Positions 17,100 to 54,442 of a DNA stretch of 64,000 nucleotides are shown one piece after another. The notes beneath the pieces are model-generated. The model was not told the origin of the DNA. It saw only the letters and a program-made list of their open reading frames with translations, and ran no database searches. Origin of the DNA: Cetorhinus maximus. Taxonomy: Eukaryota. Where the stretch lies: the NCBI RefSeq assembly GCF_964194155.1, contig NC_135906.1, positions 28,768,001 through 28,832,000 of the forward strand, read 5' to 3'. A program made the position numbers and the translations under genes. Each line of letters starts with the position of its first letter. Position 1 is the first letter of the stretch.

Positions 17100-17238
17100 C
17101 TTTTCCTTTTGGTTTTCCTCTGTTAGCTGGCTTTTCTCCAGTAATCGCTGCCAGTTCAGCTTCCAAATCAGCATCATTCTCATCACCATTCATATCCATC
17201 ATCATACTGTCCGGTGAGAGGTCTACCAGTAATCCAAG
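17100..17238 (-). CDS. CC2D1A: CC2D1A coding exon 2 (LGLLVDLSPDSMMMDMNGDENDADLEAELAAITGEKPANRGKPKGK)
   Basis: tttcacag acceptor and G|gtatgt donor, 139 nt. LGLLVDLSPD matches human CC2D1A as recalled. Confidence 0.93.
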
Positions 17239-23194: not shown

Positions 23195-23710
23195 AGCTCA
23201 GTTGGTAGCACTCTCATCACCGGGTGAGGGGGTTGTGGGTACAAGTCCCATTCCAAAACTTATGCACAAAAATCAAGGCTGATGCTCCAGTGCAATACTG
23301 AGGGAATGTTGTACTGTTGGGAAATGCTGTTTACTCTTTCAGGTGGACGTCAAAGATCCCACAACACTGCTTTGAAGAGGGGGTGGTGTTCCTGGCTGAT
23401 ATTTATTCCTCAATCAACGTCCCAAAAAAAGTTTTCCTACACCATACTCCATTGGCTATAAAGCACTTTGAGGCGTCCAGTGGTCCTGAAAAGCGTTCTA
23501 TGAACGTTAGTCTCTTTCTTACCCCCACAAAAAATAAATAAATGATCCGGTCGTTGTCAAATGGCTCTTTGTGGGATCTTGCTCTGCGCAAACTGGCTTC
23601 CCGGTTTCCGACATAACAGCAGTGACAACATTGCTAAGGTGCTCCATTGGCTGTGAAGCGCTTTGGGACGTCCTGCGGTGGTGAAAGGCGCTACATCAAT
23701 GCAAGTCTTT
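23195..23710 (+). mobile_element. tRNA-derived SINE family A, DeuSINE/SacSINE1-like (copies about 3120-3405, 7615-7870 plus 8280-8410, 11620-11840, 25385-25715, 28815-29120, 30175-30365, 43195-43560)
   Basis: tRNA head gctcagttggtagcactct...gggtacaagtccc, core aggtggacgtcaaagatccc, L2-like tail aaggcgctacatcaatgcaagt. The family name is from memory. Confidence 0.72.
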
Positions 23711-23747
23711 CTCGGTTTGCCCCTGAATGGTCGCCAGGTGCCCCTGA

Positions 23748-24438
23748 CTCTCACCTGTCCCCCTCCCCCCCCAACCACTCACCTGTCCCCCTCCCCCCCC
23801 AACCACTCACCGGTCCCCCTCCCCCCCCCAACCACTCACCGGTCCCCCTCCCCCCCCCAACCACTCACCTGTCCCCCTCTCCCCCCCCAACCACTCACCT
23901 GTCCCCCTCTCCCCCCCAACCACTCACCTGTCCCCCTCTCCCCCCCCCCAACCACTCACCTGTCCCCCTCTCCCCCCCCCCAACCACTCACCTGTCCCCC
24001 TCTCCCCCCCCAACCACTCACCTGTCCCCCTCTCCCCCCCCAACCACTCACCTGTCCCCCTCTCCCCCCCCAACCACTCACCTGTCCCCCTCTCCCCCAA
24101 CCACTCACCTGTCCCCCTCTACCCCCCCAACCACTCACCTGTCCCCCTCTCCCCCCCAACCACTCACCTGTCCCCCTCTCCCCCCCCCAACCACTCACCT
24201 GTCCCCCCCCCAACCACTCACCTGTCCCCCTCCCCCCCCAACCACTCACCTGTCCCCCTCCCCCCCCAACCACTCACCTGTCCCCCTCCCCCCCAACCAC
24301 TCACCTGTCCCCCTCCCCCCCCAACCACTCACCTGTCGTCCCCCCTCCCCCTCTCTTACCTGTCCCCCCCCCAACCACTCACCTGTCCCCCCTCCCCCCC
24401 CCCTCTCTTACCTGTCCCCCCTCCCCCCCCTCTCTTAC
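23748..24438 (-). repeat. G-rich minisatellite of about 27-31 bp, unit GGGGGACAGGTGAGTGGTTG(n)A(GA), about 21 units plus 3 variants, at the start of CC2D1A intron 1
   Basis: Direct reading of repeated caaccactcacctgtccccctc(t)cccc on the plus strand. Confidence 0.97.
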
Positions 24439-24498
24439 CTGTCGGGCCTTCGCCGCTCCCCGGCCCTTGGGCTCGGGAGGTCTTTTATTCCTGTTCAT
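24439..24498 (-). CDS. CC2D1A: CC2D1A coding exon 1 (MNRNKRPPEPKGRGAAKARQ)
   Basis: ATG at 24498 (context AAGATGA), 60 nt, ends CAG|GTAAGA. Resembles the human CC2D1A N-terminus MHKRKGPPGPPGRGAAAARQ; lies at the edge of the CpG island; phase 0 joins exon 2. Confidence 0.9.
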
Positions 24499-25520
24499 CT
24501 TGGGGACAGTCTCACGGCTGACAGGAGACAGACATTTAAATCCTTGTCTTTATTTTACTGCCGGGCGGGACGGTGAAGGTCACAGGAGCATCTCGATTCT
24601 AATCCGATTAACCCGAGGGCCTCGGGTCGGGGGGGGGCCGGAGTCCAACAACCGCCCCCCACTTTGCAACTGTTTTCCCGGCCGGTAACCACCTCAGTAA
24701 TTCGGGGTTTTTTCTTCCCCTGTCCTTTCCGCTTTCTCCTGCTTATTTTTCTTTTTTAATTAGAACTGCGTCTGGTTTCCTCCCCAGCGCTAAATAACAA
24801 TCAGACGGCTCTGCCCGCACCGTCGCAAAGAGCATGACGAACCGCCCGCACCGTCGCAAAGAGGCTGACGTAGTGCCCAGACTGTCGCAAAGAAGCTCAC
24901 GCATTGACCGTACTGTCGTGAAAAAGGCGGTCAAGGTGCTGGAGACCCGCGGTTGACGAGGGGGGGGGGTCGGCCGGCGCAGTGCATGCCGGATGTTGTA
25001 GTTTTTAACCGGGAGCCCAGCTCCCCGGAGAGAACTACATTAACCGTGGGGCGGCGGAGGTGGGGGTAGGGGAGGGGCGCGATGGCGCGCATGCGCACTG
25101 CCTTCGCACGGTAGGCGGGAAAAAGCCGGCGTCGTGTGAAGAGGCAGGTGGGCGGGGCGGGAGGCTCTTCATTAATAACCTGTCAGCACCGAAAATAAAC
25201 AGGTAGTTTGTCACAATTTCATATCGGGCTTTGACATTAAAGAAGGTTTTAATGTGAGAAAAGCGATTTAAAAAAAAAACCGAACCCCAGTTTGCCAAGG
25301 CCGAGGTGCTGGAGCCATTAATGAAGCCTCAGGCCGCCCCTCACTGGGTAAACAGGCTTTACCCTTTCAGTTAGAAAGGCAAGAGACCTGGGCACAGAAT
25401 CCAGGCTGACCCCTCAGAGCAGTACCGAGGGAGTGCCACACTGCCGGCGGTGCCGCCTCCTGAGGTGAGACTGGCACCCCACCCGCCCTCTTAGCCGGGC
25501 AACGACAGACCCCCCAAAGC
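24440..25520. promoter_or_regulatory. CpG island and bidirectional promoter shared by CC2D1A (-) and BRME1 (+)
   Basis: Dense CpG and GC-rich sequence in an otherwise CpG-poor window, between divergent genes. Contains NRF1-type GCGCATGCGC (25087-25096), ZNF143/THAP11-type ACTACAACATCCGGCATGC on the minus strand (about 24984-25003) and GC boxes (about 25150-25161). Confidence 0.8.
24813..24936. repeat. 31-bp-period degenerate tandem repeat (x4) in the promoter
   Basis: GCCCGCACCGTCGCAAAGAG at 24813 and 24844, GCCCAGACTGTCGCAAAGAA at 24875, GACCGTACTGTCGTGAAAAA at 24906. Confidence 0.75.
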
Positions 25521-26849
25521 CCTCTTGGCGAGTCCTGTTTCAATATTTATCCAGCCAATACTCAACCTCACACACACACACAAAAAAAATATACATGACC
25601 CAGTCACCGTCACATTGCTGCTTGTGGGATCTTGCTGTGCGCAAATTGGCACCCGCTTTCCGCCTTACATCAAAGGTGCGCCATTGGCTGCAAAGTGCTT
25701 TGCAGCCTCCTGATGGTGCAAATGTAGGAAACCAAGCTCTTAATGTGTTTTCCCCCCATTGCAGCATCCCCGCTTCAGTTTCACCGCGTTCATGGTTGTT
25801 TTTGTTTTCTGTGTTTTTCCTCGCTGGTTAACGGCATATAATTGAAGGATTATATTTCTCTGTGAGCCCTATAATTATTGGGCATTAGCAGTAAACGTGC
25901 AGTATAGATGCACCATTAAAGGCTGTAATCAGCATAATAATTTAAAACATCTGGTCGTGCCTTGCCATCACTGGCCGTCACTGAGCCGTTGGCAGCGTGG
26001 AGTGGATTTTATGGTAAAAATGTATGTTTTTGTACATTTACTGAAGCCTGCCTCAGAATGTGGGACTGCCATTATAACAAAATAGGGATAATATTACACT
26101 CTGCAATTCCAGCTTTTAAATTATATGATAAAATGAAGCTTATTCTGTGTGATTTCCTGGAAATGGTATAATGAAAGTCTGAAATTGAAGCGAAACAAAG
26201 TAGTTGTTAGTGAGATAATTATTACAAGATGTTGTGGATGTCAAGTTTCTCTATAATCGACTGCAGATTATTATTCCCTGATACATTTCCCAAAAATAAC
26301 ATCACATGGGGAATAATTGATATTTGGGAGTATTTACAGAGCAGCAATCTCACTCAGATGGTCTTGGAAATACTGAGCCACATCTCTGTGGCTTATAAAC
26401 TGAGGCCTAAAGTTAGAATACAGTCCTGTCTCACTTGTGTAGTTTTGGCACTGCTCTGATGGACTATAATGGTATCTTCTGATCTTGTACAACTTCATTT
26501 GTTTAGGTCCTTTAACGTAGTAGAATGTCCTGAGGTACTTAACCAGAGAATAATCAAAAAAGAAAGGCATTAGGACAGGGTACCAAAAACTTAGCCAAAC
26601 AGGTAAGGGTGAAGGTCCATCTTAAAGAAGGCGGAGAGTTTTAGAGAGGGAATTCCAGAGTTTAGGGCTTAGGCAGCTGAAGGCACAACCACCAATGGGG
26701 CTGAGGAAGAGGTGCACAAGAGATGTACAATGAATCTACATTCCTATATAACCATTATTTGTTTATCTACATTGCAGTTGGGGCAGTTTTATTTTGTATT
26801 GCTTCAATCAATTTGATAACATGGTGAGTGACAAACAAGGTAGTGACAT

Positions 26850-35105: not shown

Positions 35106-35404
35106 ATAAGGAATAAGAATAAGGAATAGCACATTTATGGCCCACTAGTGAGCTATTCCTGATCTCTGTCCTCAATATTAACTTCTTGTCACTGGTAAAT
35201 TCCAACAAGCATTTTTCTCGTCATCATTTGTTCTGATTTCCCAATATTCATTTTAGCTACTGACTCCATTTTGTGTGACCACTTTTAAACTCAAACTCCA
35301 TTTTGAGAACACCATTCAGTCAACTTACAGGGGATTTTTACATTCTGTTAGTGAGTGTGGAAAGCATTTCTTTAAGAGTAACTTTGATTTTTTAACTGAT
35401 ATAG

Positions 35405-35606
35405 AAGAGGATGGCGCATTGTTACCTGTTGTAAAGAAGGTGAGAAAGAAAAATGTGCAGCCTGGTGAGGAACAGAACACAGACACAGTAGAAACAGAAT
35501 GCAAGACCATGACAGAAGAACAAGAAACGGAGGATATTACAATGAAACCAACTGAGGAGGAAGAATTAGCAAGCAGAAGTCACAGCGTGGAACATACTGA
35601 GAAAAG
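35405..35606 (+). CDS. BRME1: BRME1 coding exon 2 (EDGALLPVVKKVRKK...HTEK)
   Basis: gatatag acceptor and AAG|gtaaag donor, 202 nt, phase 1 to 2; lies within ORF 35275..35610. Confidence 0.8.
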
Positions 35607-36976
35607 GTAAAGGAATTTTCTGTGTGATCTCTCTCCTTGTACATTGATTTCGTGTGGGAAGCCACACAATTGAAATAACAAGGAACTAGGGATGCAATTC
35701 ACTGGGACATTTTGTTATTTTGTTTCTGAGTAGTTGTGACAAAAACAATGCATTTTTATCTAAGGCAAAGGATCATATTTTAATTATACCAACATGGATA
35801 AGGGAACAAAAAGCAGCCACTGTGTAGAACAAGTCTTACTTCGGCAGACCACCTCAACTAGCACCTGCCACCTCAAACACAGACCTTTTTGACCCCGGAT
35901 TGTTAATCCTAATACTAAGACAAATATATTCAGTGGTAAAGTTTTTAAAAGTTCTCACTGATCATAGAAACAGGTAACTGTGTAAACATCCAATTATTTT
36001 GCTTGATAATCAGACACAGGGCAGGATGTTTAGTTCAGCAGGTGCGTGCGATTGGTGGGCCCAGGAGCAGCCAGGGAACGGATCCCAAACCATGATCAGC
36101 CCTGACTGCAATTTCACACTTCCTGGCCAGCCAGTGTGAAATGCGCGCTGAAAGGCTCAGTGCTGCCGGGGTGGGGGGCAGGAGGAGGATGAGCATTGAA
36201 GTCAGCGGGGGAAGCGTGGAATGAAAGCTCCCTGGAGGCAGAGAGCTTCCTCAGGGAGCGGAAGAATTTAAAAGCAATAAAAACATATTTGAAATCCAGA
36301 AAAAATGCCCACGCATCAGAATCAGTCACCTGAACATATACAAGATGAAAGTTCTGTCCATACATTTTTATTTTTTCTTTATTTAATAACAGAAACCTCA
36401 TCCCGCCCGTGGATGAGGTTTCCTGAAAAATGCAGTGGCTGATGCACCTGCCGGCCATCCGTAACATTGGATGAATAACGAAAGATCTCCGTTAATTACA
36501 ATTTTAATGGCCTTAATAGGCCTCTTAATTGTCAGCAGGCACGCTTCCAACTCTTGCGTGCGCCTACCGACGGAAATATCACGTGAGTGCGCCATGACAT
36601 CAGGCAAGTGCGCTATTTCACACTCGAGCGGGTCGGGCACGTGCCCACACACCAAGCGAAAAATTCTGCCATCGAGTGATCCCACAGCTGAGAGGGCCTA
36701 TTCATGCAGCTTCCAATTATTCCGGTAGCCTCGCCACGTATCATTAAATGGGGAGAAGCAAATGGTTCGTTTGTATATGCTGAATGCTTAACTTAACAGT
36801 GCCTCTTGTTATCTGTGCAGTAGTTGGTCCTTTTCCCACTGTACTCGTGTTTTTTGTAGAAAAACAGTAGTGATGCTGGTAAAAGACTGGCTGTATATTA
36901 CTGTTTTCAGTCCTGCTCATTGTGTTGTGCATTTGTGATTTGAATCATGTTCACTTCAGTTTCCTTCTTGTTTTAG

Positions 36977-37067
36977 AGCTGTTCTGGTTGCACAAGAGGT
37001 AGGAGAAAAAGGCTGCAGAGAAAATGGATCCCAGGACAGAGAACATTTCTTGTTTCCACTTTCTCAG
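36977..37067 (+). CDS. BRME1: BRME1 coding exon 3 (AVLVAQEVGEKGCRENGSQDREHFLFPLSQ)
   Basis: ttgttttag acceptor and CAG|gtttgt donor, 91 nt, phase 2 to 0. Ends PLSQ, compare human LPPSQ. Confidence 0.8.
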
Positions 37068-38786
37068 GTTTGTTGATGTACCACATGAGTTCGAGTGTAG
37101 TGTTTTTCACAGGATTTCAATTTACTTGACTTTGTTGATCCTGAGTCCAAATATAAAAATCCACCTATGTGGGGAAAAAAGGCTGCGTTGTTTATCTCAG
37201 ATTAGTCTTGTGTTCTATCAGTCCTAGATCTTAACCACTGCAAGGTTATAGTGTTCCTTGTGTCTATAGTGCCATTGGATCATGTTGAAAGCGAATTGGT
37301 TCACATACGAAAAACTTGAAACTCATTTGTAAAACATTGAGGAACTAACCTTGTCTCTTAGAGCTAAGATATACTTATAAATTCGGGCAAGTTGTTTCAA
37401 CAAAAGTGCTGGAAGCTCATGTTCATAGTTGAGTATTCTGCCAACACTCACCGTTCAAATTCAAATGAATAATAAAAACAGATGCTGGAAATACTCGGCA
37501 GGTTATGGCAGCATCTGTGAAGAAGAACAGAGATTTCCAGCATCTGCAGTATTCTGCTTTTTAAATGAATAATGGCCACTTGGACATGGAACTGGATGGT
37601 TGCTGATGCCAGTGGTATTTGCAAAATGGTGGATGTCCCATTTTCGGGATGGTTTCTGGGACCGAAGTCTGCATCAGCGTGAGGTGAGACTTCCCCTGAG
37701 ATATTGCCAGGAGAAGGCAATTAAGAGCCGGCAGGAGTGAAGGCAGCCAATTAAAAACGGCGAGTGAGCCAATCAGAGGGAGCCTTGGCAGTGCCACCAA
37801 GAGAGGTGGCCAGCGCTGAGAGAGCTAGGAGAAGGTGATGCGACCTCAAAATGGAGGCACCCCCCCCCCCCCCCCCCCCCCCCAGAAGGGTGAGCATCGC
37901 TTTATTTTTTTGATGAGCCAAGCAGGCAGGTCCATGAGAACATTTCCAGGTATTTTTATTTTTGTTTTGGAAAACTCCTCCACTGGCAGCGTCAGGGGCA
38001 TGGGGACCATCTTTGCCGCCAGAGGCCGCCTCGCCTCCCTGGACCTGTGCCGTTTCAACGCTGCCAAAATAACGGTGGCCTGGGAATATCGCCCTTAATT
38101 AGCCTGTAATTATTCAAATTGTCTGCCCGCTTCACTTCGGCAAGAACTTGATAACCGGTCCTGCCGCTGGCGTTCAGAATGAGTCAGGAAGCCATTCCAA
38201 CATGGCTCTTTGCTATTTTCCCAGCTTCATCAACACCCAGGACTAAGGTAAAATTCCACCCCTTATCCCAGCAAAAGTGAACACCCTTTAGCAGAGGAAT
38301 ATCAAGAGAAAAGGATAGGTTTGAAAAAAAAAGCTCCAGTGTCACTTTTTGACATTTTTAGCTTACGTCTCATAGAAACAAAGATTTTCTGAAAAAATTG
38401 TAACATAAGATTTAGAGAGATCAGTAGTTTACCTCCCACGATATTCTCATTAAAATACTCAATGTGGAATGTAGACTAAAGCTCAGTCATTGTAATACAC
38501 TACAGCAAATGTAGCACTAATCAGATATAACTATTAAATTATTAACTGTCTTAGCTATAGGAATCACGGATATATATTTATAACACCATTATCTACCATT
38601 ATATTAAACACGTTTAAGGTTCCAAGTAATTTTAACCGTGAGGAACAATCCCCCGTTCAGCTGCTGGTTATTGGAGACTTGACAGCAGGGATCAAGCCTC
38701 CCTTTCAACGTTTCTCAGTCATTTACAGAATTGTAAAAAAAATTGTACAAGATGGGGCTGTATTATTGCTCAAGTTGTTACTGATC

Positions 38787-39070
38787 ATAAGAATTAGGAG
38801 CCCATTAGGCCCATCAAGCCTGCTCCACTATTCAGGAAGGTCATGCCTGATTTGATTGTGGCTTTAACTCCATTTTCCTGCTAGCCTTCCATAACCCTTG
38901 ACTACTTTGTAGATCAAAAATATGTCTAACTCAGCCTTGGATCACTGATCCAGCCTCCACTGCTCTTTGCGGAAAAGAATTCCAAAGATTAACGACCCTC
39001 TGAGAGAAGAAATCTCTTCTCAGCTCCATATTAAATGGGAGACCCTTTATTTGTACACTCTGTCCCCTAG
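38787..39070 (-). mobile_element. CR1 3' end fragment (further short CR1 tails at about 90-215, 32975-33130, 55590-55705 and 56980-57050)
   Basis: FFSQRVVNLWNSFPQRAVEA motif in ORF 38931..39311 (-) and a CR1 3' UTR. Confidence 0.8.
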
Positions 39071-39277
39071 TTGTAGGTTTACACTGCAGTGAGCTGGTAC
39101 TTAGTGGCATCAATATCTCAGTCAACCAGGTTAATTGTAGATGAAATAATTGTTTTGCTAATGTTGTCTGCAATAATATCAAATGTTTCATTCTGTATAA
39201 TGTAAACATTTTTAAAAATCCATCACTCAAACAAATTTCAGTTTTGTTTTGCCTACTTTTGTACTTTGACCTGATAG

Positions 39278-39376
39278 AATTCACTGGGAAAATATGTTCC
39301 TGTCTTTCCAAAACCGAAAAGTCGACTTTCCCGCAGTAACCCTGTGAGGAACGATATGGAGATCAGCGACAAAGAG
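39278..39376 (+). CDS. BRME1: BRME1 coding exon 4 (NSLGKYVPVFPKPKSRLSRSNPVRNDMEISDKE)
   Basis: ctgatag acceptor and GAG|gtaata donor, 99 nt. NSLGKYVPVFPKPK resembles human NSFGRFVPQFAKSRK. Confidence 0.88.
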
Positions 39377-40106
39377 GTAATATGTAGTCCTGTCATGTTG
39401 CTACAATACAATAATAACTGTGTTATCACAATTATTTTTGCTCTAAACTATTTTAAAGAATACCGTGTAAATCACGCCAGTGTACTTACCTCCCGAGTGA
39501 AAATCTGGGTCTTTGACTCCAACATCCATATACCCACAGTCTCCAAAAGGAGTAACAGGATGGTTGTTCAAAATTCCCTCTCTCTAGCTTGTGGGACATT
39601 GAAGCCAATAATAACATGCCTTCCAGTGCTTTGGTGGAGATCAGAATTGAGCCTGAGTCCTACCTGGTCTGCATGGCTTGACACCATACCAGGCAGTGTG
39701 CTTATCAGCCAATGGGCACTATACAATCTTTCTAATGCTCCTATAATCAGCTATCACACCATACCTTGGCACACTTGTGTACTAGTATGTTGTAGCAATG
39801 ACCTGCCGTAGATTCTTGTGTTTTTTCTACAGTTTAGTGTTGCAGCAGCTACTGTAGAAGGGAACTCATTAGCCTGTACTTTATAAAAGTGATATTCCAG
39901 TAAATTGCATATTTTTATATCGTGTGTACATTGTGCTCCTTTTGCATACATTGTAAATAAACCATGCTGCTCGCATGCTTCTACTTCAGAAGCTCAATAA
40001 CATACATCGAAAATCATCCTGTATACCAGCTAAGGTAATATAAGTAACTGCATTCAGTCAGATGTAGACAAGTTTTTATTTAATTTTTTGCATTTTATTA
40101 CTTAAG

Positions 40107-42728
40107 AGCTTAAACAACAGTAAAGCGGAAGGTGACAGTAGTCCTCAGAACATGGATCTTGAAAATTCAGGATTTTGCCTGCCTGCTGCCAAGCACCAAC
40201 TACAGGTATCACAGCAATCACTGGAACAGATTGCTTGTAACACAATATCAAGTCAACCAAATGCAATAGAGTCAGGGAAAGAGCAGGAGACTGAGACAGA
40301 TGATTACTGCGTTAAACAAAGGAGTGATGGTGATGTATCGCTTTCAGACACGCAAATGGGGCCACAGCTTGTAGGCTGTGAGCTAGAGGAGTTGACTTGC
40401 CACTCAGACCAAAAAATTACTGAAGTAGAGAATAAAAGCAACAAACTAGACGACCATCAGATTGAAATAGATGTGTTTTGCAGCACTTTGATCCCAATAG
40501 CTCACAGCACACCAGATGAACGGCCACTAACTCAGTCAGAGTGTAAAATACAGAATTTCCCTGAAGAGAAGCCTGACCTTGAGCTTTTGCATCATTCTCT
40601 TTACCAGGAAAAGACTGATGTTGTGCCAGTCACCCTTGAGGAATTGACTCTTTGCCGAGGTGTAAAAAGGGAATGCACTATAGAACTCAATAACAATATT
40701 GATGGGAATGGAGAAAGATGTGTTCTTGTACCTGAAGCTTTTAAGAACTCTAGTTGCAGAGAGAAGACACGTAATCTTGTAGTAGTCTGTGAAGAGTTAA
40801 CTGGAACTGAGGTTAACAGACAAGAACTAGCTGTCCAAATGAAATTGACCACAGATATACCTGAACAGAATGATCTGAAAGACATAACCTGTTCACAGCC
40901 TCCTGACCTCTTGTGTTCCAACACCCTCCACCATTCACTTGATACTAATGCTGCAAATCAGGCAAAGAACACCTTTAATTCCCAAGCTAATATAATGAAT
41001 AGACATGAAAATGTAAATGAGAAACTGCAGGAGACACCCAGCTGTGAGGCTAAATTAAGCATTGCTATAAGAAGTAATGTCCTGCAAAACTTTGATGCTT
41101 GCCAAAAGGATGGTGATTGGTCTGACATAAATGGTGCTTGCAACCCTGGGTCTGAAGTGACTATCAGCAAAATACTGCACAAAGACTCAAATGACCATCA
41201 AGTTAAACCTCAACAGCAGCCCAGCCAATGCTTTCTGGAAGATGAAACAATGGAGATTGATCATGAGACTTTATCTGGCCACCAAGGTGAACTTGAGTCT
41301 GAAAGTCAGAAAATTGCCCAGAATCTTTGCAACAGCTTTCATGATCATGATGTTAGTATAGAGGGGCGCAGTTCTGCAAATTGTAGTGATGCTGGTGAGG
41401 AAACAAAGCAGCTGATCCAAGAGGCGTTAAATAATAGTCATAGCAACAATCCATTAACAACTGACTTTGCAGACCAAAAACATAATTCTACTGCACGAAG
41501 TCAAGCTGGGCTGGGAGAACAATGCGTTAGATCCAGGCAATCTGAGTTTCCAGAAGCTCCATTACTTAACACAGTGCTCAATTACTCACAAACCAATCTG
41601 CTTTCAGCAAACAAGACAGCTGATGTGTCTGCGAGCACTGGGGCTTTTAAGGTATATAATGGAAACAGCTGTAACACAGAACCTCAACTTGGCCTGCAAA
41701 CTGGCATCACTAGATCGCAAGAGCGGGAAATCACAGAAAAGGCGCTACCTGTTGCAAACCTCAACCCTTCACAACAAGCTATCTGTCCAATCAAGAGTGA
41801 AGCCATTCTTTCTACTGAAGTCAACGATCATCAGATGCTTTTTGATGGTAATTACAATGGAAAGGTTACGAAGGACAACAAAGAGTTAGACAGTAAAACA
41901 ACAGTGGTCATAACCGATGAGCTAAAATCCAGCATGTTTTTATCGTTATATAACGTAGACTTCCAAATTGAAAGCAATTTGAGCAATGTCACTGAAGAAA
42001 AAGACAAAGAAGATTTAGGTAGAAAAGAGATTCAATGTAAGACCGGCATTAAAAGAACGAAAGAAGATGTTACTGTAACTTTACTGTTACCAGGCATTGG
42101 AATGGAAGACTGTGTTGATGGGCATCAGCCGGAAGATAAAATGAAGAAAGCAATTCAAGCTGGAGGGAGTATATCCACAGGCATAGACTGTGGTGGTGTG
42201 AACATCAGTAATAATCAGAAGTCAGGCATAGAAGAACAGTCTGTCCCGCCTTTAATGGACCATATTGCAGAGAGAGAAAGTTTAAATGAAAGTGGTACTT
42301 TTGATGAAATAGGTTTCCCTGTGGAGAAGATAGATATGGAACTGGGTTGTGAGATGTCTGGAGATGTGAATGCATTACCCAAAACTGATCCAAATCTAGC
42401 AGCCATTCCACAGTATCAGTCACCGGAAGATTTCACAAAGAGGCACGGATACCTTTCAATGGTATTTCCACCCTCAAGAAATGAAATGCCAAGTCATTGT
42501 TCTGATGGTAGTGATGTTAACATAGAAACAAGCCACTATAACAAAATAAATGAACGTGAAAGGATAAGTAGCATTAATGAAAGCAAAAGCTGCAGTATTT
42601 CTTTGGTGGATGTGGGCTCCTCCAGTAAGGAACAGGAGAACAATAAGATTCAGTATGTACCAGCACCTCAGAGCGCGAACCAAAGGAATAAAAGTGAACA
42701 AAAACCATTCTCCTGTACAAAAAGCAAG
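40107..42728 (+). CDS. BRME1: BRME1 large central exon (874 codons, acidic and Ser/Asn/Gln-rich, probably disordered)
   Basis: Open frame 40152..42800. In-frame acceptor after a pyrimidine tract (cttaag|AGC) and strong AAG|gtaagg donor; 2622 nt, phase 0-0. Confidence 0.85.
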
Positions 42729-43791
42729 GTAAGGATGTTTTTATTAATAAGGGTTAAAAGCAGCACTGACGTGCAAATATTCAACCAAAAAACACTATAA
42801 AAGTTACCAACATCTACTTTTAACTGGTAGAATTGTATACCCTAACCTCAGGACTTCAAAAGAAGTGTACCAGGGGAAGAATTCCTCTGATTCTAAAGCT
42901 AGGACATTGTAAATGTGTTCATGAAGATTTCTCTCTTTATTTCTAGGAACAGTGTAAGCTTGTTCAAAAAGAAAAGAAAGACTTGCATTTATTTAGAAAC
43001 ACTGACCAAGGGAAATAGTCATGAAAATGTTTACGATGTTGCTACACAAACTGACCAGAGTAATTCCTCCCTCAATATTTAGTGGGATGAATTTCCTCTA
43101 ATTGTGTGCTAATTCCCAGCTCTTGATCTCCGCTGTAGCAAGAATATAATCAGATTTTTTTGGAGCCATTTCCATTTTTCTGTGCCAAGCGTCACTGGCT
43201 CAGTTGGTGGCACTGTAGCCTCTGGATCAAAAGGCTGTAGGTACAAACGCCACTGTAGCACGTAATCTAGGCTGATAATTCAGTGTTGTACTGTGGAAGT
43301 ATAGCATCATAAGAGCTATTGTACTTCCGATTACTTCAGATGAGACTTTAAACTGAGGCACCTTCCTGGTGATCCAGGTGGGAATGAAAGATTCCGTGGT
43401 ACATGTGAGTTGTCCTGACCTAAATTTCATCCCCAACCAACATCATAAAAACAGAGTAACTGGTTATTCATTTCATTACTGTTTGTGGGACCTTTCTGTA
43501 GTCAAAAATGATCATAGTGTTTACTCTTAACCGTACAATGTAATTCATTCCACGTGTCTTGTACACGGTTATTTTACTGAGTGGACATTAGCACATCCCT
43601 AATAAATCGGAAGAGTTTAAGCTATCCTCCATGAATACATTTGTACCAGTTAGAGCACATTGTTACAAAATAACTCTCGTCAGCATGTGATGTAAAAATT
43701 TTAATAATGATCATTCAATAAACATAAAACCTCTATTCCCCTATTGTAGAGTTTTTGACATTTCACTTAGCTCTCGTTTCTCTTGTTTTAG

Positions 43792-43828
43792 GCACTAACC
43801 AAACTCACTAATGACGAGGTACAACCAG
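43792..43828 (+). CDS. BRME1: BRME1 small exon (ALTKLTNDEVQP)
   Basis: ttctcttgttttag acceptor and CAG|gtaatt donor, 37 nt. Supplies the phase 0 to 1 shift needed to keep the next exon open. Confidence 0.65.
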
Positions 43829-45310
43829 GTAATTAAACAAAAAGTTTATTATATAATAATGTTTACATGGCAGAAATACTATTTCCACCATTTAAATTGA
43901 GGAGTATTGTTTTATTTATCTGTTTGGTATAAGTTACTTTATTTTCTTTTTACCTTTTCTCTTTGGAATCTTCCATGGCACACATCATTCTTGAAAGAGC
44001 ACATAGGGCTGGAGGCTTGTTAGAAGATGTGAAGTTGGCCCAGAGTGACTGGCTGCCTTCATTTTTCAATCCCTTTCTATGGTTAAGTCCCCAGTTACTG
44101 CACAGCAGAGAGTCTGAGATCAAGGACTGGAGTGCAGAAAGAAACCTTGTTATAGCACCTGGTACAGTGTATTGGAACTCCTTTAGCAAACAGCTTTAGG
44201 TTTTGTTTTTTTTTCATTCCTACTCAGTAAATCCTTTTGCACTGCTCATTGATCCTTTGGGAAGCAGCCAACCGGATTCAAGGCTTCTGTCAGTGATAAA
44301 CTGGAACTGGTTGCTAGGAGATATTTAAGAGTACCACAGGCTGACCTTCTCGCTGACTTTCCAGCCTTTTTCTCCAGTCTGGAAGCATTTCAATACCATT
44401 TGGCCGTTCACCGTGACAGTGTGGTCAAAATTGAGAATTTGCTGTGTGAAGCATTTTAGGCACAGATTCCACTCCCTGTTGTGCAGCCTGTTCATGTGCT
44501 AATTTATTCTCCCCCCCCTCCCAAAACGATTAAAGAACGGGAACACTTCCTGGCACCTGGTTATTCCTGGAGCTGTATTCTGTAGAAGTCGCAACGTTCA
44601 TTAAACAATGCATTGTCCCTATGTTGATCTAAATTTTGGATGTAATTTAGCTCATTTATATGTAATTTGTCAACAAAACTAAGAAATAAGTTCAAATACA
44701 TTGCATTGTAGAGGTGGAGGCTGGTATATTGTGAACATGATCACCATAAGGAAGCTTGCAACGTAAGCATTCAGCCCAGGACTTAAGCAATTGTGGGCTC
44801 TTTACCCCTTCTGTTCTAAAGATCTTTATGCTCTTTTCCTAAAGCTCTGTGAATCAAATGTATCTATTACTATCTCGATACATCTCAGTATGGTTTTTTT
44901 GATGGGGTATTGATCCAGTCACGTTTTGGGCAAAATATCATTTTAAACATATCAATTCACCAAGAATAATTTATTCTGGTATCCTGATGAATTCACAATC
45001 TCAGCTGTTCTGTTATAGGGAAATGTGATTCTAATCTAGGTGCTTCCTCACAGGGAAGGACATGAAATTAGTAAGAGCTAACCCAGGGCCACCCCCAGTT
45101 TGGAATGGTATTGACAGAACCCTTGGTAGCAAGTTGATTGTGGTACCTTATGTAAATAGACCATAAGAAAGCAAGGAAAGTAGATCTTAATATTGACAAA
45201 TTTATCTGAAGGTCTGAGAACCATAATACAGTATAGGGTATTAACAAAACTGGAAAGAGTAAGAGAGAAAGATCACAATAAATTAAGGAATGAATTGAGT
45301 GAATTGAGAT

Positions 45311-45357
45311 GACATGATCTTAAATGACATGGATCTTAAATGACATGGATCTTAAAT
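45311..45357. repeat. 16-bp tandem repeat x3 (gacatggatcttaaat)
   Basis: Direct reading. Confidence 0.85.
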
Positions 45358-46127
45358 GCCTGTAGATTATAGAAAGAAGAGAATATTGAGGGAGGAATAA
45401 TACCTCAACTAAACAACTACTGGGATTTTTTGACATCTGGTAAACACATAGTTGTGTCTGCTCCAATGAAAGGCTGCTATTCAGTTTAATTTACAGTGTT
45501 TGTGATTTGGTCCCAAAGACTTCTTGGGAGTTGCTGTTGAGTAATACTCAATGGACTCTTGAAAAACAATGGGATATCTGTAATAGGGCTGACCTGTAAG
45601 TGTCAGCGAAAGGGAGATCCTCAAGTTATGTGGCAGGCATATTGAAGGGGAGCCCCTACTGGCATTGCTCCTTTATCTGTCCCACACAGTTTAGCTGAGA
45701 TAGAGATTAAAAGAGAAAGGTGAGAGTGCTGGAAATCTTAAATTATGAATGCTGGGACAGGTCTGATAGAAAGTAAGGGGGAAGGAAAGGTTATCATCAG
45801 AACTGGAGACTTTCTTGCTTCCACAAAGAATCCTTTTAAACCATGATTTCTGCAAAACTAAATGTTAAAAATGTCATTGTGGTGGAAGAACTTTATACCA
45901 CTTGCTTGTATTGGAACTTTCTCAGAGAATTACACAATTGTTTCTGACTGCAAACACATAGTTTCGCATTGAATATAATTTACAAAAACTTTTACAACAT
46001 GTTTCCATGACCCGAGATGAATGGAGCATAAACTTTCAGATTCATCGTGATTTCTAAAATTGTCAATGGATCGAAAGCTATTGTAATTCGTGATTAAACC
46101 AATGAACCGGTCATCTCTTCCTCGTAG

Positions 46128-46260
46128 GTGATAAAGATTATGAATTACAACTCTTTAAACCGACATTAGAAAACAAGGCTGTGACAGAACTTCCAGCACT
46201 CAATGCCCCTCAGGAAGATAATGCCAATTTTGCATCTGAGCTCGAAGATCTGCATTTAAG
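46128..46260 (+). CDS. BRME1: BRME1 exon (DKDYELQLFKPTLENKAVTELPALNAPQEDNANFASELEDLHL)
   Basis: ctcttcctcgtag acceptor and AAG|gtgtca donor, 133 nt. Open in phase 1 (phase 0 hits TAG); ends in phase 2, matching the next exon. Confidence 0.68.
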
Positions 46261-46582
46261 GTGTCAATAGTTTTTAATTAATATATGTGATATTAGACAT
46301 TAGATACTGGATGATGAGACCTTATCTTTCATCTCTAGGACTTGAGTTTAAACCCCATCTAGACCATAAGGATCTATTGTGTAATGAGTTTGAGGTATTC
46401 TCCACACAGTTCCTAGTTGCCATCAACTCTTAGTACAAAACTGCCTCAATCTACATTAGTAGGTACTAAATTGGCAGCCTTATTCATAGATACTACTGGA
46501 CAGCTGATAGGTGTGGACAAATAGATGAGTGTCTCACTGGGAAAGCTAGGCCAATTGGTTTGAGTCTGAGCCTGCAATTGCT

Positions 46583-46746
46583 GTGACCTACCTTAGCTTA
46601 GAGTGCTGAATAATAATATTGGTGTGACCTGCCTTGGCTGAGAGTGCTGAATAATAATATTGGTGTGACCTGCCTTAGCTGAGAATGCTGAATAATAATA
46701 TTGGTGTGACCTGCCTTAGCTGAGAGTGCTGAATAATAATATTGGT
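46583..46746. repeat. 41-bp tandem repeat x4
   Basis: gtgacctgccttagctgagagtgctgaataataatattggt at 46583, 46624, 46665 and 46706. Confidence 0.95.
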
Positions 46747-47157
46747 GCTAGAAGTAGAAAACTGTCATAAGTAATTATTGAAAAGATTTAATCATTTTCT
46801 ATTCTTTTGTAAACCTCAAAGGGCCTCAAGGCCTGAACTATTGTAAGGATGAATGGATCTGAAGTTATGCCATGTTTAATTATATCTAATACTTAAATGG
46901 GTGGGAAGCAGTCAGTGGCATTTAAAAGAGACCCAGGAGTTAGAATGTCCTGGGCTTCATTTTTACTGCAGCAGATGAGCTTTGAACTGATCCCAGTTAA
47001 AATTAGGGACCACAGATGGGACACCAGACAGGAAATGGGCAGTCAGCGGTTTAAAACTACCCCTGACAACACTTTTCAGATATGTTTTGTCACTGGCTGT
47101 TTGAGTGCTTCCATAATGATAAAGTCTAAAGTGAATCTGTCCTTGATATGGTTACAG

Positions 47158-47253
47158 TGAATCCGATTGGCAGGCCTTTTCTCCTTCCACAGAAGAAGAG
47201 GAAGACGCTACACATGTTGTCTGTGGGCTCATTAGTGAACTTTCCAAAATAAA
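47158..47253 (+). CDS. BRME1: BRME1 conserved C-terminal helix exon (…EEEEDATHVVCGLISELSKIN)
   Basis: ggttacag acceptor and AA|gtgagt donor, 96 nt. Matches human EDATNVVRGLIVELSNLN, in the region reported to bind HSF2BP/MEILB2. Confidence 0.92.
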
Positions 47254-47854
47254 GTGAGTAATCTTTAGGGACCCCAAATCATTTGTGTGCTCTAAAAAGA
47301 TTTTCAGTATTTTTGACAACTGTTTAAAGCAATTTCTAAATGCTGAAGGAAAAGCAACTAATAGAAGTGATATGATCACAGTGATTATTTTTATAGTGAG
47401 TCATTGAGTGCTGTGTGGATCTTGTGTTGTGACATTTAATGCCGTGATTGCTGCTGACTATCTCACACATGAGTGACAGAGATACAAATGTGCTGTGTTT
47501 AGGCCCATCATTTGTACAAAAATGTGACTCACTGGGGAATTAACTGTTTTCCCTGGTCATAATCATTTCATAAATTATTAATGCTGTAAGGAGTATTTGG
47601 GCAGTCAGTCCCACACCAGCTAAGTGTGGAGGTGCTGAATATGAGTCAGGCAACTCCATGAGAGAGGGAAGCCCACTTGTGAACATTTTGGTAGGCAACC
47701 AAAAACAGCACTATTTCAATGTCTTGTCAGTTACATTGTTAAGGTTAAGAGAAATAGGTGATGGGTATTGATTGTCTTTGAGCTCATATAAATAGGGGAT
47801 AACTGGGACACTGGGTTGAGTGGGAGAAGAGCTGTAAAACTGAACAAGTCAATA

Positions 47855-49275
47855 CACTGACTCCGACAGCTACCTTGACTATAAATCCTCACACCCCACT
47901 TCCTGCAAGGACTCCATCCCATTCTCTCAGTTCCTTTGCTTCTGTCGCATCTGTTCCGATGATGCCACTTTCCAAAACAGTGTGTCTGACATGTCTTCCT
48001 TCTTCCTTAACCGAGGTTTCCCACCCACGGTGGTTGACAGGGCCCTCAACCGTGTCCGACCCATCTCCCGTGCCTCTGCCCTCACACCTTCCTCTCCCTC
48101 CCAGAACCATGATAGGGTCCCCCTTGTCCTCACTTTTTACCCCTCCAGCCTTTGCATTCAAAGGATCATCCTCCACCATTTCCACCAACTCCAGCATGTT
48201 GCCACCACCAAACACATCTTCCCTTCACCCCTCTGTCAGCATTCCGGAGGGCCCGTTCCCTCCGGGACACCCTGGTCCACTCCTCCATCACCCCCTACAC
48301 CTCAACCCCCTCTCACGACACCTTCCCATGCAATTGCAGAAGGTGCAACACCTGCACCTTTACTTCCCCCCGCGTCATCGTCCAAGGGCCCAAACACTCC
48401 TTTCAAATGAAGCAGCATTTCACTTGCACTTCCCTCAATTTGGTCTACTGCATACGCTGCTCCCAGTGCGGTTTCCTCTACATTGGAGAGACCAAACGCA
48501 GACTGGGTGACCGCTTTGCAGAACACCTTCGGTCTGTCCACAAACATGACCCAGACCTCCCTGTCGCTTGCCATTTTAACACCCCACCCTGCTCTCTTGC
48601 CCACATGTCCGTCCTTGGCCTGCTGCATTGTTCCAGTGAAGCTCAACGCAAACTGGAGGAACAGCACCTCATCTTCCGATTAGGCACTTCACAGCCTCCC
48701 GGACTTAACATTGAGTTCAACAACTTCAGATCATGAACTCTCTCCTCCATCCTTACCCCTTTTTGATCCCTTTTTTCAATATTCATTTTTTAATTTACAT
48801 GTATATATTTTTTTCCCGCCCATTTCTATTATTATTTTAAAATTTATTTCCATCCATTGTTTTATCTCCACCTTTTAGCCTATTTCCATCTTTTTTCCCA
48901 CACTGTCCCCTCCCCCACCCCACCCCCACGAGGGCCACCTGTCACTTGCTCATTCTGCTTTCTACTTTTAACGTCACCATTAGCACTTCCTTTAGCCAGT
49001 ATCACCACCATCAACACCCCTTCGACTTTTTGTCTATGACATCTTTTGCAATCTCTTCTTTGCCTCCACCTATCACTGGCCTTCTATCCAGCTTCACCTG
49101 TCTCACCCCCCTTAAACAGTGTATATTTCACCACATTTCTACTTCTCTTTAGTCCTGAAGAAGAGTCGAAACGTTCACTCTGTCTTTCTCTCCGTAGATG
49201 CTGTCAGACCTGCTGAGTTTTTCCAGCAATTTTTGTTTTTGTTTCAGATTTCCAGCATCCGCCGTATTTTGCTTC
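47855..49275 (+). mobile_element. Penelope-like element 3' fragment with frameshift
   Basis: ORFs 47982..48410 and 48152..48736 carry the GIY-YIG region and are highly similar to 20600-21470; 3' pLTR with a damaged hammerhead at about 49151-49180. Confidence 0.92.
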
Positions 49276-49861
49276 TAACTTAAGTCAATAAACTTTCTCA
49301 ATAAAGAAAAGCCCTTGGTTTTGTCTTCACCAATCCGCGTGGATCTGTTAACGCACTAGATATGGCCAACTTGGTTGCAGCAGGCTCATTAGGGAAATGT
49401 CAGGAAGGGATGGAAACCTGGGGAAAGTAGGAGGTAATACACTCGCAAAAGAAATTTGCTATCAGCAAACAAGAGTGTGAGGAAACCTTTCTGTTCGAAG
49501 TACTCCTTTATTCCAAGCACAAATTGTCAGCCTCACATTATATTTCTTTTACGTTTTCTTGCCAATATGAACGCCTTCAATTATTGTCTCACTCCCTGCT
49601 TGACCCACTATAATTATGGTAATTGCAGGTAACCTCCCAGACATGCACCATTTTAAGCACTAGCAGTCTTTGTTTCAAAATAGCGTCTGGCCCACTCTGT
49701 AGCTGTGCAGCCTTGAGAAACCATTGTAGGGAATGGGAAACCTGCATCTCTAACTGGTAGTACAGTGTGCCAGAGTTGGGTAGCTATCAGACCTGTTTGA
49801 AGTTATGCCCCTGTGGAACTGCCCAAGAATGCTGCATATAATCAATGTCATGGGACAAGCA

Positions 49862-50447
49862 GGGGTGGATTTTACAGGGTGGGGGAGGGGGGGGGGTGCG
49901 GATCACCTGCACCCCCGACTCCAACCAAAAAGTCATTTGGCACTGCGCTGACCAGAAACCTGCGGTGATATTATGCTGGGATCAGCCTTAATTGTTTCAG
50001 AGTGGGACTTCCGCCCTCACCTAGGAGGAAATCCCACCCTGGAGACCTACTGGCCAATCTCATTGGCTGCCAGCTGTGTGGTCCCAGCGGCGCCAGGTTT
50101 GAGTAGTGGTCACTGTTGGGACTACAGGCAGCCCTCGAGAAGAAGTGTCATGGATCCCGGACTTAAGGTAATTCCAGGGATCTTGGATAGGCCTGCCACA
50201 GCCCACACAGTGAAAGCTACCCAGCTTGCTTCTGCCTCCCCCTGCTGCATGTATTCAGGTGATAGAGGTGGAATGAGGCCCCACTTAAGGGCCACACTAC
50301 GCCTAAAGGTCAGTGGGCTGCTTGAGTTACCCACCCATTGTAATATGGGAGATGTGAGAGAATGGTGGTGGGCAGGCCATCCAATTTATCTTATGAGCCC
50401 TCCCACCTTAAGATACACCAGCGGGTGGGGGGCATAAAATTCACCCC
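49862..50447. mobile_element. GC-rich MITE-like element with terminal inverted repeats GGGGTG(G/A)ATTTTA; related elements at about 36019-36670 and 37590-38260
   Basis: Left end ggggtggatttta, right end taaaattcacccc; no coding capacity. Confidence 0.65.
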
Positions 50448-51049
50448 TATGTTCAGATGCAATCGTGTTTCACTTTTCTGCACTAGTGAAAGTTCCCTGA
50501 AGGAACAGATACTGTCTGAGGTGAATGTGGGACATGCCATGTTTTGTACCTTGCATTACTTTCTAAAGTGGAATCGCTTTTGAAGTTGAAGAATGGAACA
50601 AACAGGAGAGCAAATGAAACGTGGATTTCATAATAGCATCAGCTAGTGAACCTAGCCGTTTTCTTCCTCTTGCCCCAGCCATCCTGTGCCCATATTTTCT
50701 CTCCCTGCAAAGCGAAGTTGAAATGTGGAGCTCTTGCTGTTTCATGTACAGCCATTGAGTTTGTTTTTCTCAGCATTAGGGCTGGTTTCTTCCCCCTGCA
50801 AGATGGAGCAACACCATAAGTTTAGAATTTAGAAAGGAACATCTAGAAAGCATTTAATGTACAGCAATTTACGCTAAAAATGCAGTGACCATTCTAAAGT
50901 AAGCAAACACACAGCAGCCTTTTCTGAACAATGACTGCAGTGAGATGAGAGCCAGCTGGAAGCTGGAAGAATTCATGTCTTGAAAAAGGAACAAGGCAAA
51001 GCGTGGCAGAAAGAGCCTGGAGAGTTGCTGCTGGCTTTATTGTAAATAG

Positions 51050-53965
51050 ATGGTAGTGGTCATGGGTTTGGAAGGTGCTGTCCAAGGATCCTTGGTGAAT
51101 TCTTGCAGTGCATCTTGTAGATGGTACACACTGCTGCTACTGTGCATCGGTGATGGAGGGAGTGAATGGTTGTGGATCTGGTGCCAATCAAGCGGGCTGC
51201 TTTGCCCTGGACGATGTCAAGCTTCTTGAGTGTTGTGGGAGCTGCACTCATCCAGGCAAGTGGGCAGTATACCATCGCACTCCTGACTTGTGCCTTATAG
51301 ATGATGGACAGGCTTTAGGGAGTCAGGAGGTAAGTTACTCGTCACACGATTCCTAACCTCTGATCTGCTCTTGTAGCCACAGTATTTATATGGCTAGTCC
51401 AGTTCAGTTTCTGGTCAGTGGTAACCCCTAGGATGTTGATAGTGGGGGATTCAGTGATCGTAATGCCATTGAACATCAAGGAGCGATGGTTAGATTCTCT
51501 CGTTGGAGATGGTGATTGCTTGACACTTGTGTGACGCAAATGTTACTTGCCACTTGTCAGCCCAAGCCTGGATATTGTCCAGGTCTTGTTGCATTTGGAC
51601 ATGGACTGCTTCAGTATCTGAGGAGTCGTGAATGGTGCTGAACATTGTGCAATCATCAGCGAACATCCCCACTTCTGACCTTATAATGGAAGGAAGGTCA
51701 TTGATGAAGCAGCTGAAGATGGTTGGGCCGAGGACACTACCATGAGGACCTCCTGCAGTGATGTCCTGGAGCTGAGATAACTGACCTCCAACAACCACAA
51801 CCATCTTCCTTTGTGCTAGGTACGACTCCAACCTGAGGAGAGTTTTCCCCCTGATTCCCATTGAACCCAGGGCTCCTTGATGCTGCACTCGGTCAAATGC
51901 TGCCTTTATGTCAAGGGCAGTCACTTTCACCTCACCTCTGGAGTTCAGCTCTTTTGTCCATGTTTGAACCAAGGCTATAATGAGGTCAGGAGCTGAGTGA
52001 TCCTGGCGGAACCCAAACTGGGCGTCAGTGAGCAGGTTATTGCTAAGCTAGTGCTGCTTGATAGCACTGTTGATGACTCCTTCCATTACCTTACTGATGA
52101 TTGAAAGTAGACTGTCAGGGCGGTAATTCGCTGGGTTGGATTTGTCCTGCTTTTAGTGTACAGGACATATCTGGGCAATTTTTCACATAGCCGGGTAGAT
52201 GCCAGTGTTGTAGCTGTACTGGAACAGCTTGGTTAGGGGTGCGGCAAGTTCTGGAGCACAAGTCTTCAGTAGTATTGGCGGCATATTGTCAAGGCCCATA
52301 GCCTTTGCAGAATCCAGTGCCTTCAGTCGTTTCTTGATGTCACGTGGAGTGAATCAAATTGGCTGAAGACTGGCATCTGTGATGCTGGGGACCTCCGGAG
52401 GAGGCCGAGATGAATCATCCACTCAACACTTCTGGCTGAAGATTGTAGCAAATGCTTCAGCCTTATCTTTTGTGCTGATGTGCTGGGCTTCTCCATCATT
52501 GAGGATGGGGATATTTGTGGAGCCTCCTCCTCCAGTGAGTTGTTTAATTGTCCACCACCATTCACGACAGGACGTGGCAGGACTGCAGAGCTTAGATCCG
52601 ATCTGTTGGTTGTAGGATCGTTTAGCTCTGTCTATCACTTGCTGCTTATGCTGTTTGGCACGCAAGTAGTCCTGTGTTGTAGCTTCATCAGGTTGACACC
52701 TTATTTTTTAGGTATGCCTGGTGCTGCTTCTGTCATGCCTTCCTGCACTCTTCATTGAACCAGGGTTGATCCCCTGTCTTGATGGTAATGTTAGAGTAGG
52801 GGATATGCTGGGCCATGAGGCTATAGATTGTGTCCAAGTACAATTCTGGCACTGCTGATGGCCCACAGCACCTCATGGATGCCCAATCTTGAGTTGCTAG
52901 ATCTGTTCGAAATCTATTCCATTTAGCACAGTGGTCGTGCCACACAACACGATGGAGGGTATCCTCAATGTGAAGGCAGGGCTTCACCTCCACAATGACT
53001 GTGTGGTGCTCACCCCTGCCGATACTGTCATGGACAGATGCATCTGCGGCAGACAGGTTGGTGAGGATGAGGTCAACTATGTTTTTCCCTTACCACCTGC
53101 CGCAGACCCAGTCTAGCAGCTATGTCATTTAGGACTCGGCCAGCTCGGTCAGTAGTGGTGCTACTAAGCCACTCTTGGTGATGGACATTGAAGTCCCCCA
53201 CCCAGAGTACATTCTGCACCCTTGCCACCCTCAGGGCTTCCTCCAAGTGGTGTTCAACGTGGAGGAGCACTGATTCATCAGCTGAGGGAGGGTGGTACGT
53301 GGTAATCAGCAGGAGGTTTCCTTGCCCATGTTTGACCTGATGCCGTGAGACTTCATGGGGTCCGGAGTCGATGTTGAGGATCCCAGGATAACTCCCTCCT
53401 GACTGTATGCTGCTGTGCTGTCACCTCTGCTGGGTCTTCCCTACCGGTGGAACAGGACATACCCAGGGAAAGTGATGGTGGTGTCTGGAACAATGCCTGT
53501 AAGGTATGATTCCGTAAGGATGACAGTGGGAGGCTTGTTTGACTAGCCCGCAGATGTTAGTAAGGAGCACTTTGCAGGGTTGACAAGGCTGAGTTTGCCA
53601 CTGGTGGTCTGTCCGGGTTCATTCCTTTTTTGTGACTTTGTGAGCAGTTTGTTACAATTGAAAGGCTTGCTGGGCCACTTCAGAGTCAACCACGTTGCTC
53701 TGGGTCTGGAGTCACAGATAGGCCAGACAGATTTCCTTCCCTAAAGGGGCATTAAGGAACCAGATGGGTTTTTACAAAAATTTGGTCATCATTGGACTTT
53801 TAATTCCAGATTTGTTTTTAATTGAATTCAAATTCCACCATCTGCCATGATGGGATTGAAACCCAGAGCATTATTCTGGGTGTTTGGATTACCAATCCAG
53901 CAAAAATACCGCTACGCCGGCAACAATACCACTACGCCGGCAACAATACCACTACGCCATCGCCT
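51050..53965 (-). mobile_element. Single-ORF APE-RT non-LTR retrotransposon (CR1/L2 group, clade unassigned), decayed, with tRNA-like 5' head; 3' end truncated
   Basis: ORF fragments WVGDFNVHH (APE), ALDIKAAFDRV, GSVLGP and FADD (RT), MSAAPTTLKKLD; 53660-53965 resembles the SINE at 7885-8200. Confidence 0.88.
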
Positions 53966-54300
53966 CCAAGACTGCTGGTCATCATTAAGGGGGAAAGTGT
54001 TAGAATGCTGAGAGCACTCTGCCTTTCTTTATACACTGCCCTGGGTCCTTACTGCACACCTGAACCATCAGAAATGGTAGACAGCACTGCTGACAATGCA
54101 GCACATCCATTATTGCACTGAAGAGTCAGCTTTATCAACTCCAGCCCTATTGTGGGATTTAAGCCGCAGCCATCTGACTCTGAGGTGAGAACACTACAAA
54201 CTGAACCAAGCTGAAATAATGAATCATTGATAATGTTATCCTATAAAGTACATGCTCAGGCATAACATTGTAACTGTTTCGTGTGTGATAATCTCCTCAG

Positions 54301-54442
54301 TCGTGTCATTATGATCACCCATCGGGAGCTGGAAAGCATGAGGCGACACAAAAACAGGAGAGTGAGACCAGTTGGCAGACAACCACACATCTCAAAAGGA
54401 GCAACAAATGTACCATATTCAGTGAAGAGGAAAGATCTATGA
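54301..54442 (+). CDS. BRME1: BRME1 last coding exon (RVIMITHRELESMRRHKNRRVRPVGRQPHISKGATNVPYSVKRKDL*)
   Basis: atctcctcag acceptor, phase 2, TGA at 54440-54442. Matches human RLIMGTHRDLEAFKR...PYPSKG. Confidence 0.92.

Follow-up and report, generated by a model that had tools for sequence, protein, structure and literature searches.

Minisatellites that reiterate a 5' splice donor have been described in the human genes F7, IFI6, CBS, LMNB2, and PDGF (Borensztajn et al. 2006, PMC1557585). The VNTR of F7 is located in intron 7 and has a 37-bp unit, and the most upstream donor is the sole donor used in F7, LMNB2, and PDGF (PMC1557585). IFI6 (6-16) contains 25 extra sites, two of which are used, and two are also used in CBS (both cited in PMC1557585). 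In F7, the most upstream donor is chosen even against stronger downstream copies, with the exception of CAG/gtgagt, which overrode this upstream-first selection in minigenes and accounted for ~70-90% of splicing (PMC1557585). The 'mirage' minisatellites of amphioxus (Adh3 and globins) leave splicing apparently undisturbed (Ebner et al. 2010, PMC3087553). In addition, G-runs located between donors, as in TP53 intron 6 (PMC12062376) and at hnRNP F/H sites (PMC1326234), favour the upstream donor.

A G-rich array of donor-like sites is present at the first coding exon of CC2D1A in the window, i.e. the whole 64-kb stretch of Cetorhinus maximus DNA that was analysed. The array and the adjoining parts of the gene are organized as follows:

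24439..24498, minus strand: coding part of the first coding exon of CC2D1A, 20 codons (tblastn, residues 1-20 of P0001)
24433..24441, minus strand: authentic donor CAG/GTAAGA, first unit of the array (tblastn of P0001; also matched, up to 24429, by contigs from organisms B and C)
24406..24414, minus strand: second donor, identical to the real one, at +27 nt (unit 1 in the X3 contig, gap-free bin)
24377..24385, minus strand: first CAG/GTGAGT donor, at +56, causing a frameshift; its TGA is the codon 40 stop for more distal donors
23750..24438, minus strand: minisatellite rich in G, with 24 units (23-32 nt each), a donor at its end, and 46 runs of G
23749..23757, minus strand: terminal donor-like site CAG/GTGAGA
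23400..23712, no strand assigned: high-copy dispersed repeat, ~40 nt beyond the array (23400 being an approximate limit)
17100..17238, minus strand: CC2D1A exon 2 (acceptor at 17238), with an in-frame Met cluster at residues 32-34

Over 46 residues, exon 2 (17238-17100) shows 100% identity with the CC2D1A protein P0001, which is labelled Cetorhinus maximus. Because residues 1-20 of this protein map to 24498-24439, the first donor is the annotated donor, and the array lies directly behind CC2D1A exon 1 and starts at the real donor, as the sequence-only reading of the locus had proposed. Twenty-five donor-like 9-mers were identified on the minus strand between 24439 and 23755 at a spacing of 23-32 nt: three CAG/GTAAGA (24439, 24412, and 24360), 19 CAG/GTGAGT, two CCG/GTGAGT (23840 and 23811), and one CAG/GTGAGA (23755). 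This recount agrees with the earlier tally and its site types. TRF detected a single array (23750-24430; period, 29-30; 23.8 copies; 88% match), which consists of 67% G and contains long G-runs upstream of every extra donor. The usable G figure is the number of runs of 5-10 (46), the count obtained with a four-run G-quadruplex pattern (2) being an artefact of greedy matching. Since CAGGTGAGT does not occur on either strand in the rest of the 64-kb window, the local donor excess is not due to chance, and it represents one amplification history, not 24 independent sites.

When G-run length is disregarded, the 24 units are reduced to seven ordered variants. The first intronic letters of the real donor are shared by units 1, 2, and 4 only, and the remaining 21 units form a second, homogenised type that differs from the real junction at five of the first 10 intronic positions. 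In 22 of the 24 extra sites, the donor is preceded by a repeat of the five letters that end the exon. Contigs from organism B (X5) and organism C (X14) agree with the window across exon 1 as far as 24429, at ~7 mismatches per 100 letters, and then extend by a further 100 and 113 letters, respectively, which fail to align with the remainder of unit 1; these contigs share with unit 1 only the first 10 nt of the intron. As these intronic letters are common to the contigs and unit 1, units 1, 2, and 4 are copies of the junction. The earlier view that the units duplicate the junction itself thus applies to the start of the array (three units) but not to the 21 main units. The contigs suggest that the array, in the form seen here, is likely to be lineage-restricted; organisms B and C may possess a different array.

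Three structural features place the array among those known from human and lancelet genes: a unit of minisatellite size, as given by the TRF period and copy number; a first unit that spans the real boundary, residues 1-20 of P0001 ending at 24439; and reiteration of the donor as two exact copies and 22 variants, the exact-copy form accounting for only two of 24. As in the F7 and IFI6 kind, the exon-intron boundary lies within the first unit and the donor recurs along the intron, with 24 extra sites in CC2D1A compared with 25 in IFI6 (PMC1557585). The copies of the F7 type are described as having the exact sequence of the real donor, whereas 22 of the 24 differ in CC2D1A, 19 of them being perfect CAG/GTGAGT; moreover, the real donor is weak in F7 but strong in CC2D1A, and, unlike the F7 type, G makes up two-thirds of the CC2D1A units, which adjoin the first coding exon (PMC1557585). 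The mirages resemble the CC2D1A array in their tandemly duplicated exon-intron boundary and in having splice signals in many units, but the CC2D1A unit holds only ~5 exonic letters, and length and somatic instability have been demonstrated for the mirages, whereas the CC2D1A array is known from one assembly (PMC3087553). The TP53 and hnRNP F/H systems resemble CC2D1A in having G-runs that separate a real donor from a stronger one downstream, and they provide the model for retention of the first donor, but they contain no tandem array and concern human cells or extracts, not shark (PMC12062376, PMC1326234). Distinct to this locus is that most copies are predicted to be stronger than the real donor and are embedded in G-runs. 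The claim that no such array had been described holds for the CC2D1A locus, our literature search for a minisatellite or VNTR in its intron 1 having found none among the papers listed (a weak negative), but not for the kind, which is described in PMC1557585 and PMC3087553.

U1 pairing was scored as the ViennaRNA duplex energy. The real donor is predicted to pair with U1 at eight positions, and the duplex energies are -11.0 kcal/mol for this donor and its two copies and -13.3 kcal/mol for CAG/GTGAGT; 19 extra sites have better predicted pairing than the real donor. These predictions are in line with the previous description of the extra sites as strong U1 targets. The open frame is kept only by the real donor and the +27 copy, and the recomputed frames agree with those given before (+27 in frame and +56 out of frame). 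As an NMD switch would require, 23 of the 24 extra donors would yield an early stop, i.e. at codon 44 from the +56 donor and at a TGA at codon 40 from all 22 more distal donors. Both stops precede the exon-2 Met cluster (residues 32-34), and translation could possibly restart there. The annotated isoforms P0014 and P0028, from two other sharks, begin at the Met of exon 2. Among 28 cartilaginous-fish CC2D1A proteins retrieved, 21 contain exon 1 and seven do not; all 21 join at the first donor and none contains a junction insertion, these proteins being gene models, which would not list RNAs removed by decay, and only P0001 coming from a genome known to carry the array.

We consider it probable (~0.7) that the array is a passenger, i.e. 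a G-rich minisatellite at the CC2D1A exon-1 donor in which, by analogy with the human systems, the first donor would nearly always be chosen and its 24 copies would stay silent; we infer that the array is neutral. A short duplication of the junction (three units) would have occurred first, and the second unit type (21 units) would then have expanded in this lineage by the usual turnover of minisatellites. G-runs upstream of an extra donor would behave as exonic silencers if that donor were used and as intronic enhancers for the first donor, and, combined with upstream-first selection, they may cause the array to silence itself. The first donor would also benefit from cap-proximal preference. 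Leakage beyond +27 would lead to a stop at codon 40 or 44 and then to RNA decay or to a restart at the exon-2 Met cluster, and, because such RNAs would be degraded or restarted, the cost of leakage is likely small. This splicing mechanism is carried over from human systems and would operate at the CC2D1A array only to the extent that the analogy holds. The main counter-evidence to the passenger reading is the CAG/gtgagt exception in F7, where, however, the real donor is weak; the use of two extra donors in IFI6 and CBS also speaks against it (PMC1557585).

The same observations bear on a second reading, in which much of the splicing goes to the perfect downstream donors and the length of the array or of its G-runs tunes CC2D1A dose through early stops and decay or yields a protein with nine additional residues or a shortened N-terminus. 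Such a leaky switch would profit from the 19 sites whose predicted U1 pairing exceeds that of the real donor, from the success of the CAG/GTGAGT 9-mer in F7 constructs and the use of the two nearest copies in IFI6 and CBS (PMC1557585), from the in-frame +27 donor, and from the isoforms P0014 and P0028 that begin at the exon-2 Met. We nevertheless regard it as unlikely, since the insertion isoform is absent from all 21 exon 1-containing proteins and G-runs between donors favour the upstream one (PMC12062376, PMC1326234). A related proposal, that CC2D1A relies on the array's own G-runs to hide the better U1 matches, and that changes in G-runs, copy number, or hnRNP F/H would provide heritable control over dose or over a form without the first 31 residues, is decidedly doubtful.

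That the array is an assembly artefact or has an inflated copy number appears quite improbable. Long G-runs are error-prone, and the run contig reaches no further than the beginning of unit 2; however, the units comprise seven ordered variants, the region contains no Ns, and the locus is single-copy in the assembly. The X3 contig (organism A) matches 24410-25500 with one mismatch and three gaps and extends nine letters into unit 2, which confirms the start of the array and the +27 spacing and bears on unit 1 and the start of unit 2, not on length, although run X3 is possibly derived from the source sample. Raw reads of a second individual (X21) cover only ~24595-24816 and a dispersed-repeat fragment near 25380-25460. 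In the distal flank (23640-23790), positions 23724-23735 are uncovered in all four runs, including that of organism A, and the flank is uninformative on an empty site in relatives. The dispersed repeat at 23400..23712, which is presumably SINE-like, is aligned by 1,576-2,463 contigs per run, most of which end at ~23712. The share of words in X1 (0.79, compared with 0.74 expected from the flanks alone) was too weak to use. No RNA data set was listed as sharing sequence with 23300-25300, a result that carries no information on expression.

Similar arrays are present elsewhere in the same genome. A search for three CAGGTRAGT words 15-30 nt apart yielded 915 matches compared with 939 for the reversed word, both figures being counts of overlapping matches dominated by long arrays. 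Among the matches listed (the first 100), 18 separate arrays were distinguished, at least two of which start at the ends of coding exons. One of these (contig C6 of assembly G000, 156.386 Mb, minus strand; L063:2891) follows a GPATCH1 exon (E 4e-21, residues 1-48 of 49) and contains 31 donor-like sites in 39-nt units, i.e. a first AAG/GTGAGT, 16 CAG/GTGAGT, and 14 CAG/GTGGGT. The other (C8 of G000, 62.633 Mb, minus strand; L067:2092) follows an exon encoding a DGK accessory domain (E 3e-4) and contains 13 donor-like sites in G-rich 24-nt units, including a CCG/GTGAGT variant and one CAG/GTGAGA, both of which, along with the G-runs, are common to the DGK and CC2D1A arrays. The GPATCH1 and DGK arrays begin at a coding-exon end and repeat CAG/GTGAGT, like that of CC2D1A, but they adjoin internal exons, have unrelated units (39 and 24 nt), and show no promoter nearby. 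The 39-nt unit of the GPATCH1 array is a multiple of 3, and one frame is open through many units.

No Pfam match was found upstream of the other 16 of the 18 arrays among the matches listed. In the Pfam search of 26 frames upstream of 24 arrays or pairs, only the DGK exon was matched and the GPATCH1 exon was missed; the count of exon-seeded arrays, which refers to coding exons and includes one array (L060) whose start lies outside its stretch, is therefore a lower bound. A tighter G-run pattern gave 58 matches at 16 places compared with 15 for the control, 29 of the matches coming from the CC2D1A and DGK arrays, and Pfam detected no coding exon upstream in the six extra stretches found with this pattern. 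Four stretches (L069-L071 and L078; C3372, C3548, and C2947 of G000) derive from small contigs and are G-rich satellite throughout, made up of CAGGTGAG-containing units of 28 or 20 nt. Seven of the 16 arrays without an upstream Pfam match have one 28-nt donor-like unit in common; these short arrays are located on five contigs (L051, L052, L061, L062, L064, L065, and L066), five of them with similar upstream flanks, which looks like a minisatellite inside a mobile element. A derivation of the main CC2D1A unit from a dispersed 28-nt family or from the large satellite of C3372 was considered and rejected; the mean best identity of the 41 units was 0.797 compared with 0.758 +/- 0.055 for tail-shuffled units, and mostly reflects G content. 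In this genome, donor arrays thus arise repeatedly as a side effect of minisatellite growth, and some of them begin at real donors.

Upstream of CC2D1A, the window contains two further features:

24500..25250, no strand assigned: CpG island, presumed divergent promoter (CpG observed/expected, 0.98-1.09)
35365..54439, plus strand: coding exons of a BRME1-like gene, head-to-head with CC2D1A (PF15710 in homologues)

The first coding exon of the BRME1-like gene is located near 35365, and its large exon carries PF15710 (Brme1) in seven of nine homologues, the direct Pfam match being weak (E 0.2). A promoter common to the two genes is plausible. Several additional elements were noted in this region. 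The annotated isoform P0015 starts with an upstream exon (25600-25767, minus strand) whose sequence is similar to a dispersed repeat and whose donor is weak, and it omits the ATG exon; this isoform may be a modelling artefact. An acceptor-like pyrimidine tract with AG is located at 24518-24535 (minus strand), ~20 nt before the CC2D1A ATG, and given this tract the ATG exon may sometimes be internal. A 31-nt unit is repeated ~3 times at 24813-24918, inside the CpG island between both genes; of two further minisatellites, one lies within the BRME1-like gene at 46577-46747 (41 nt x 4.2) and the other shortly past it at 55161-55429 (51 nt x 5.3).

U1 protects nascent RNA, and CC2D1A intron 1 (~7 kb) contains four AATAAA hexamers downstream of the array on the transcribed strand. 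A selected U1-loading or G-quadruplex platform that protects this intron from premature polyadenylation, or shifts the balance of the divergent promoter from BRME1 to CC2D1A, would accord with these hexamers and with the promoter-proximal position, the CpG island, and the head-to-head gene, but it is highly improbable, because the promoter and the exon, but not unit 1, are present in relatives, similar arrays lie behind internal exons of unrelated genes, there is no genome-wide excess over the reversed word, and the real donor is strong already. The dedicated U1-loading platform or switch advanced earlier is not supported, since the kind of array was already described, recurs at unrelated genes, and shows no excess over the reversed word; it is further weakened by the mismatch of the B and C contigs to unit 1 beyond 10 nt and by the absence of the nine-residue insertion from the 21 proteins. 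The sequence-only reading is thus partly supported overall.

The CC2D1A array is a further example of an oddity already known, and a function for it is conjectural. This oddity, an array at an exon donor, recurs in this shark genome, where three genes (CC2D1A, GPATCH1, and DGK) have been identified. The CC2D1A locus is also a ready-made test substrate, in which 19 CAG/GTGAGT sites naturally lie behind a strong donor with G-runs between them, the F7 constructs having lost upstream-first selection with CAG/gtgagt (PMC1557585). If CC2D1A does rely on its G-runs to hide the better U1 matches, the locus would be a natural test of G-runs and upstream-first selection against perfect donors, and if the sites leak in proportion to array length, the array would be a repeat-length splicing dial on CC2D1A.
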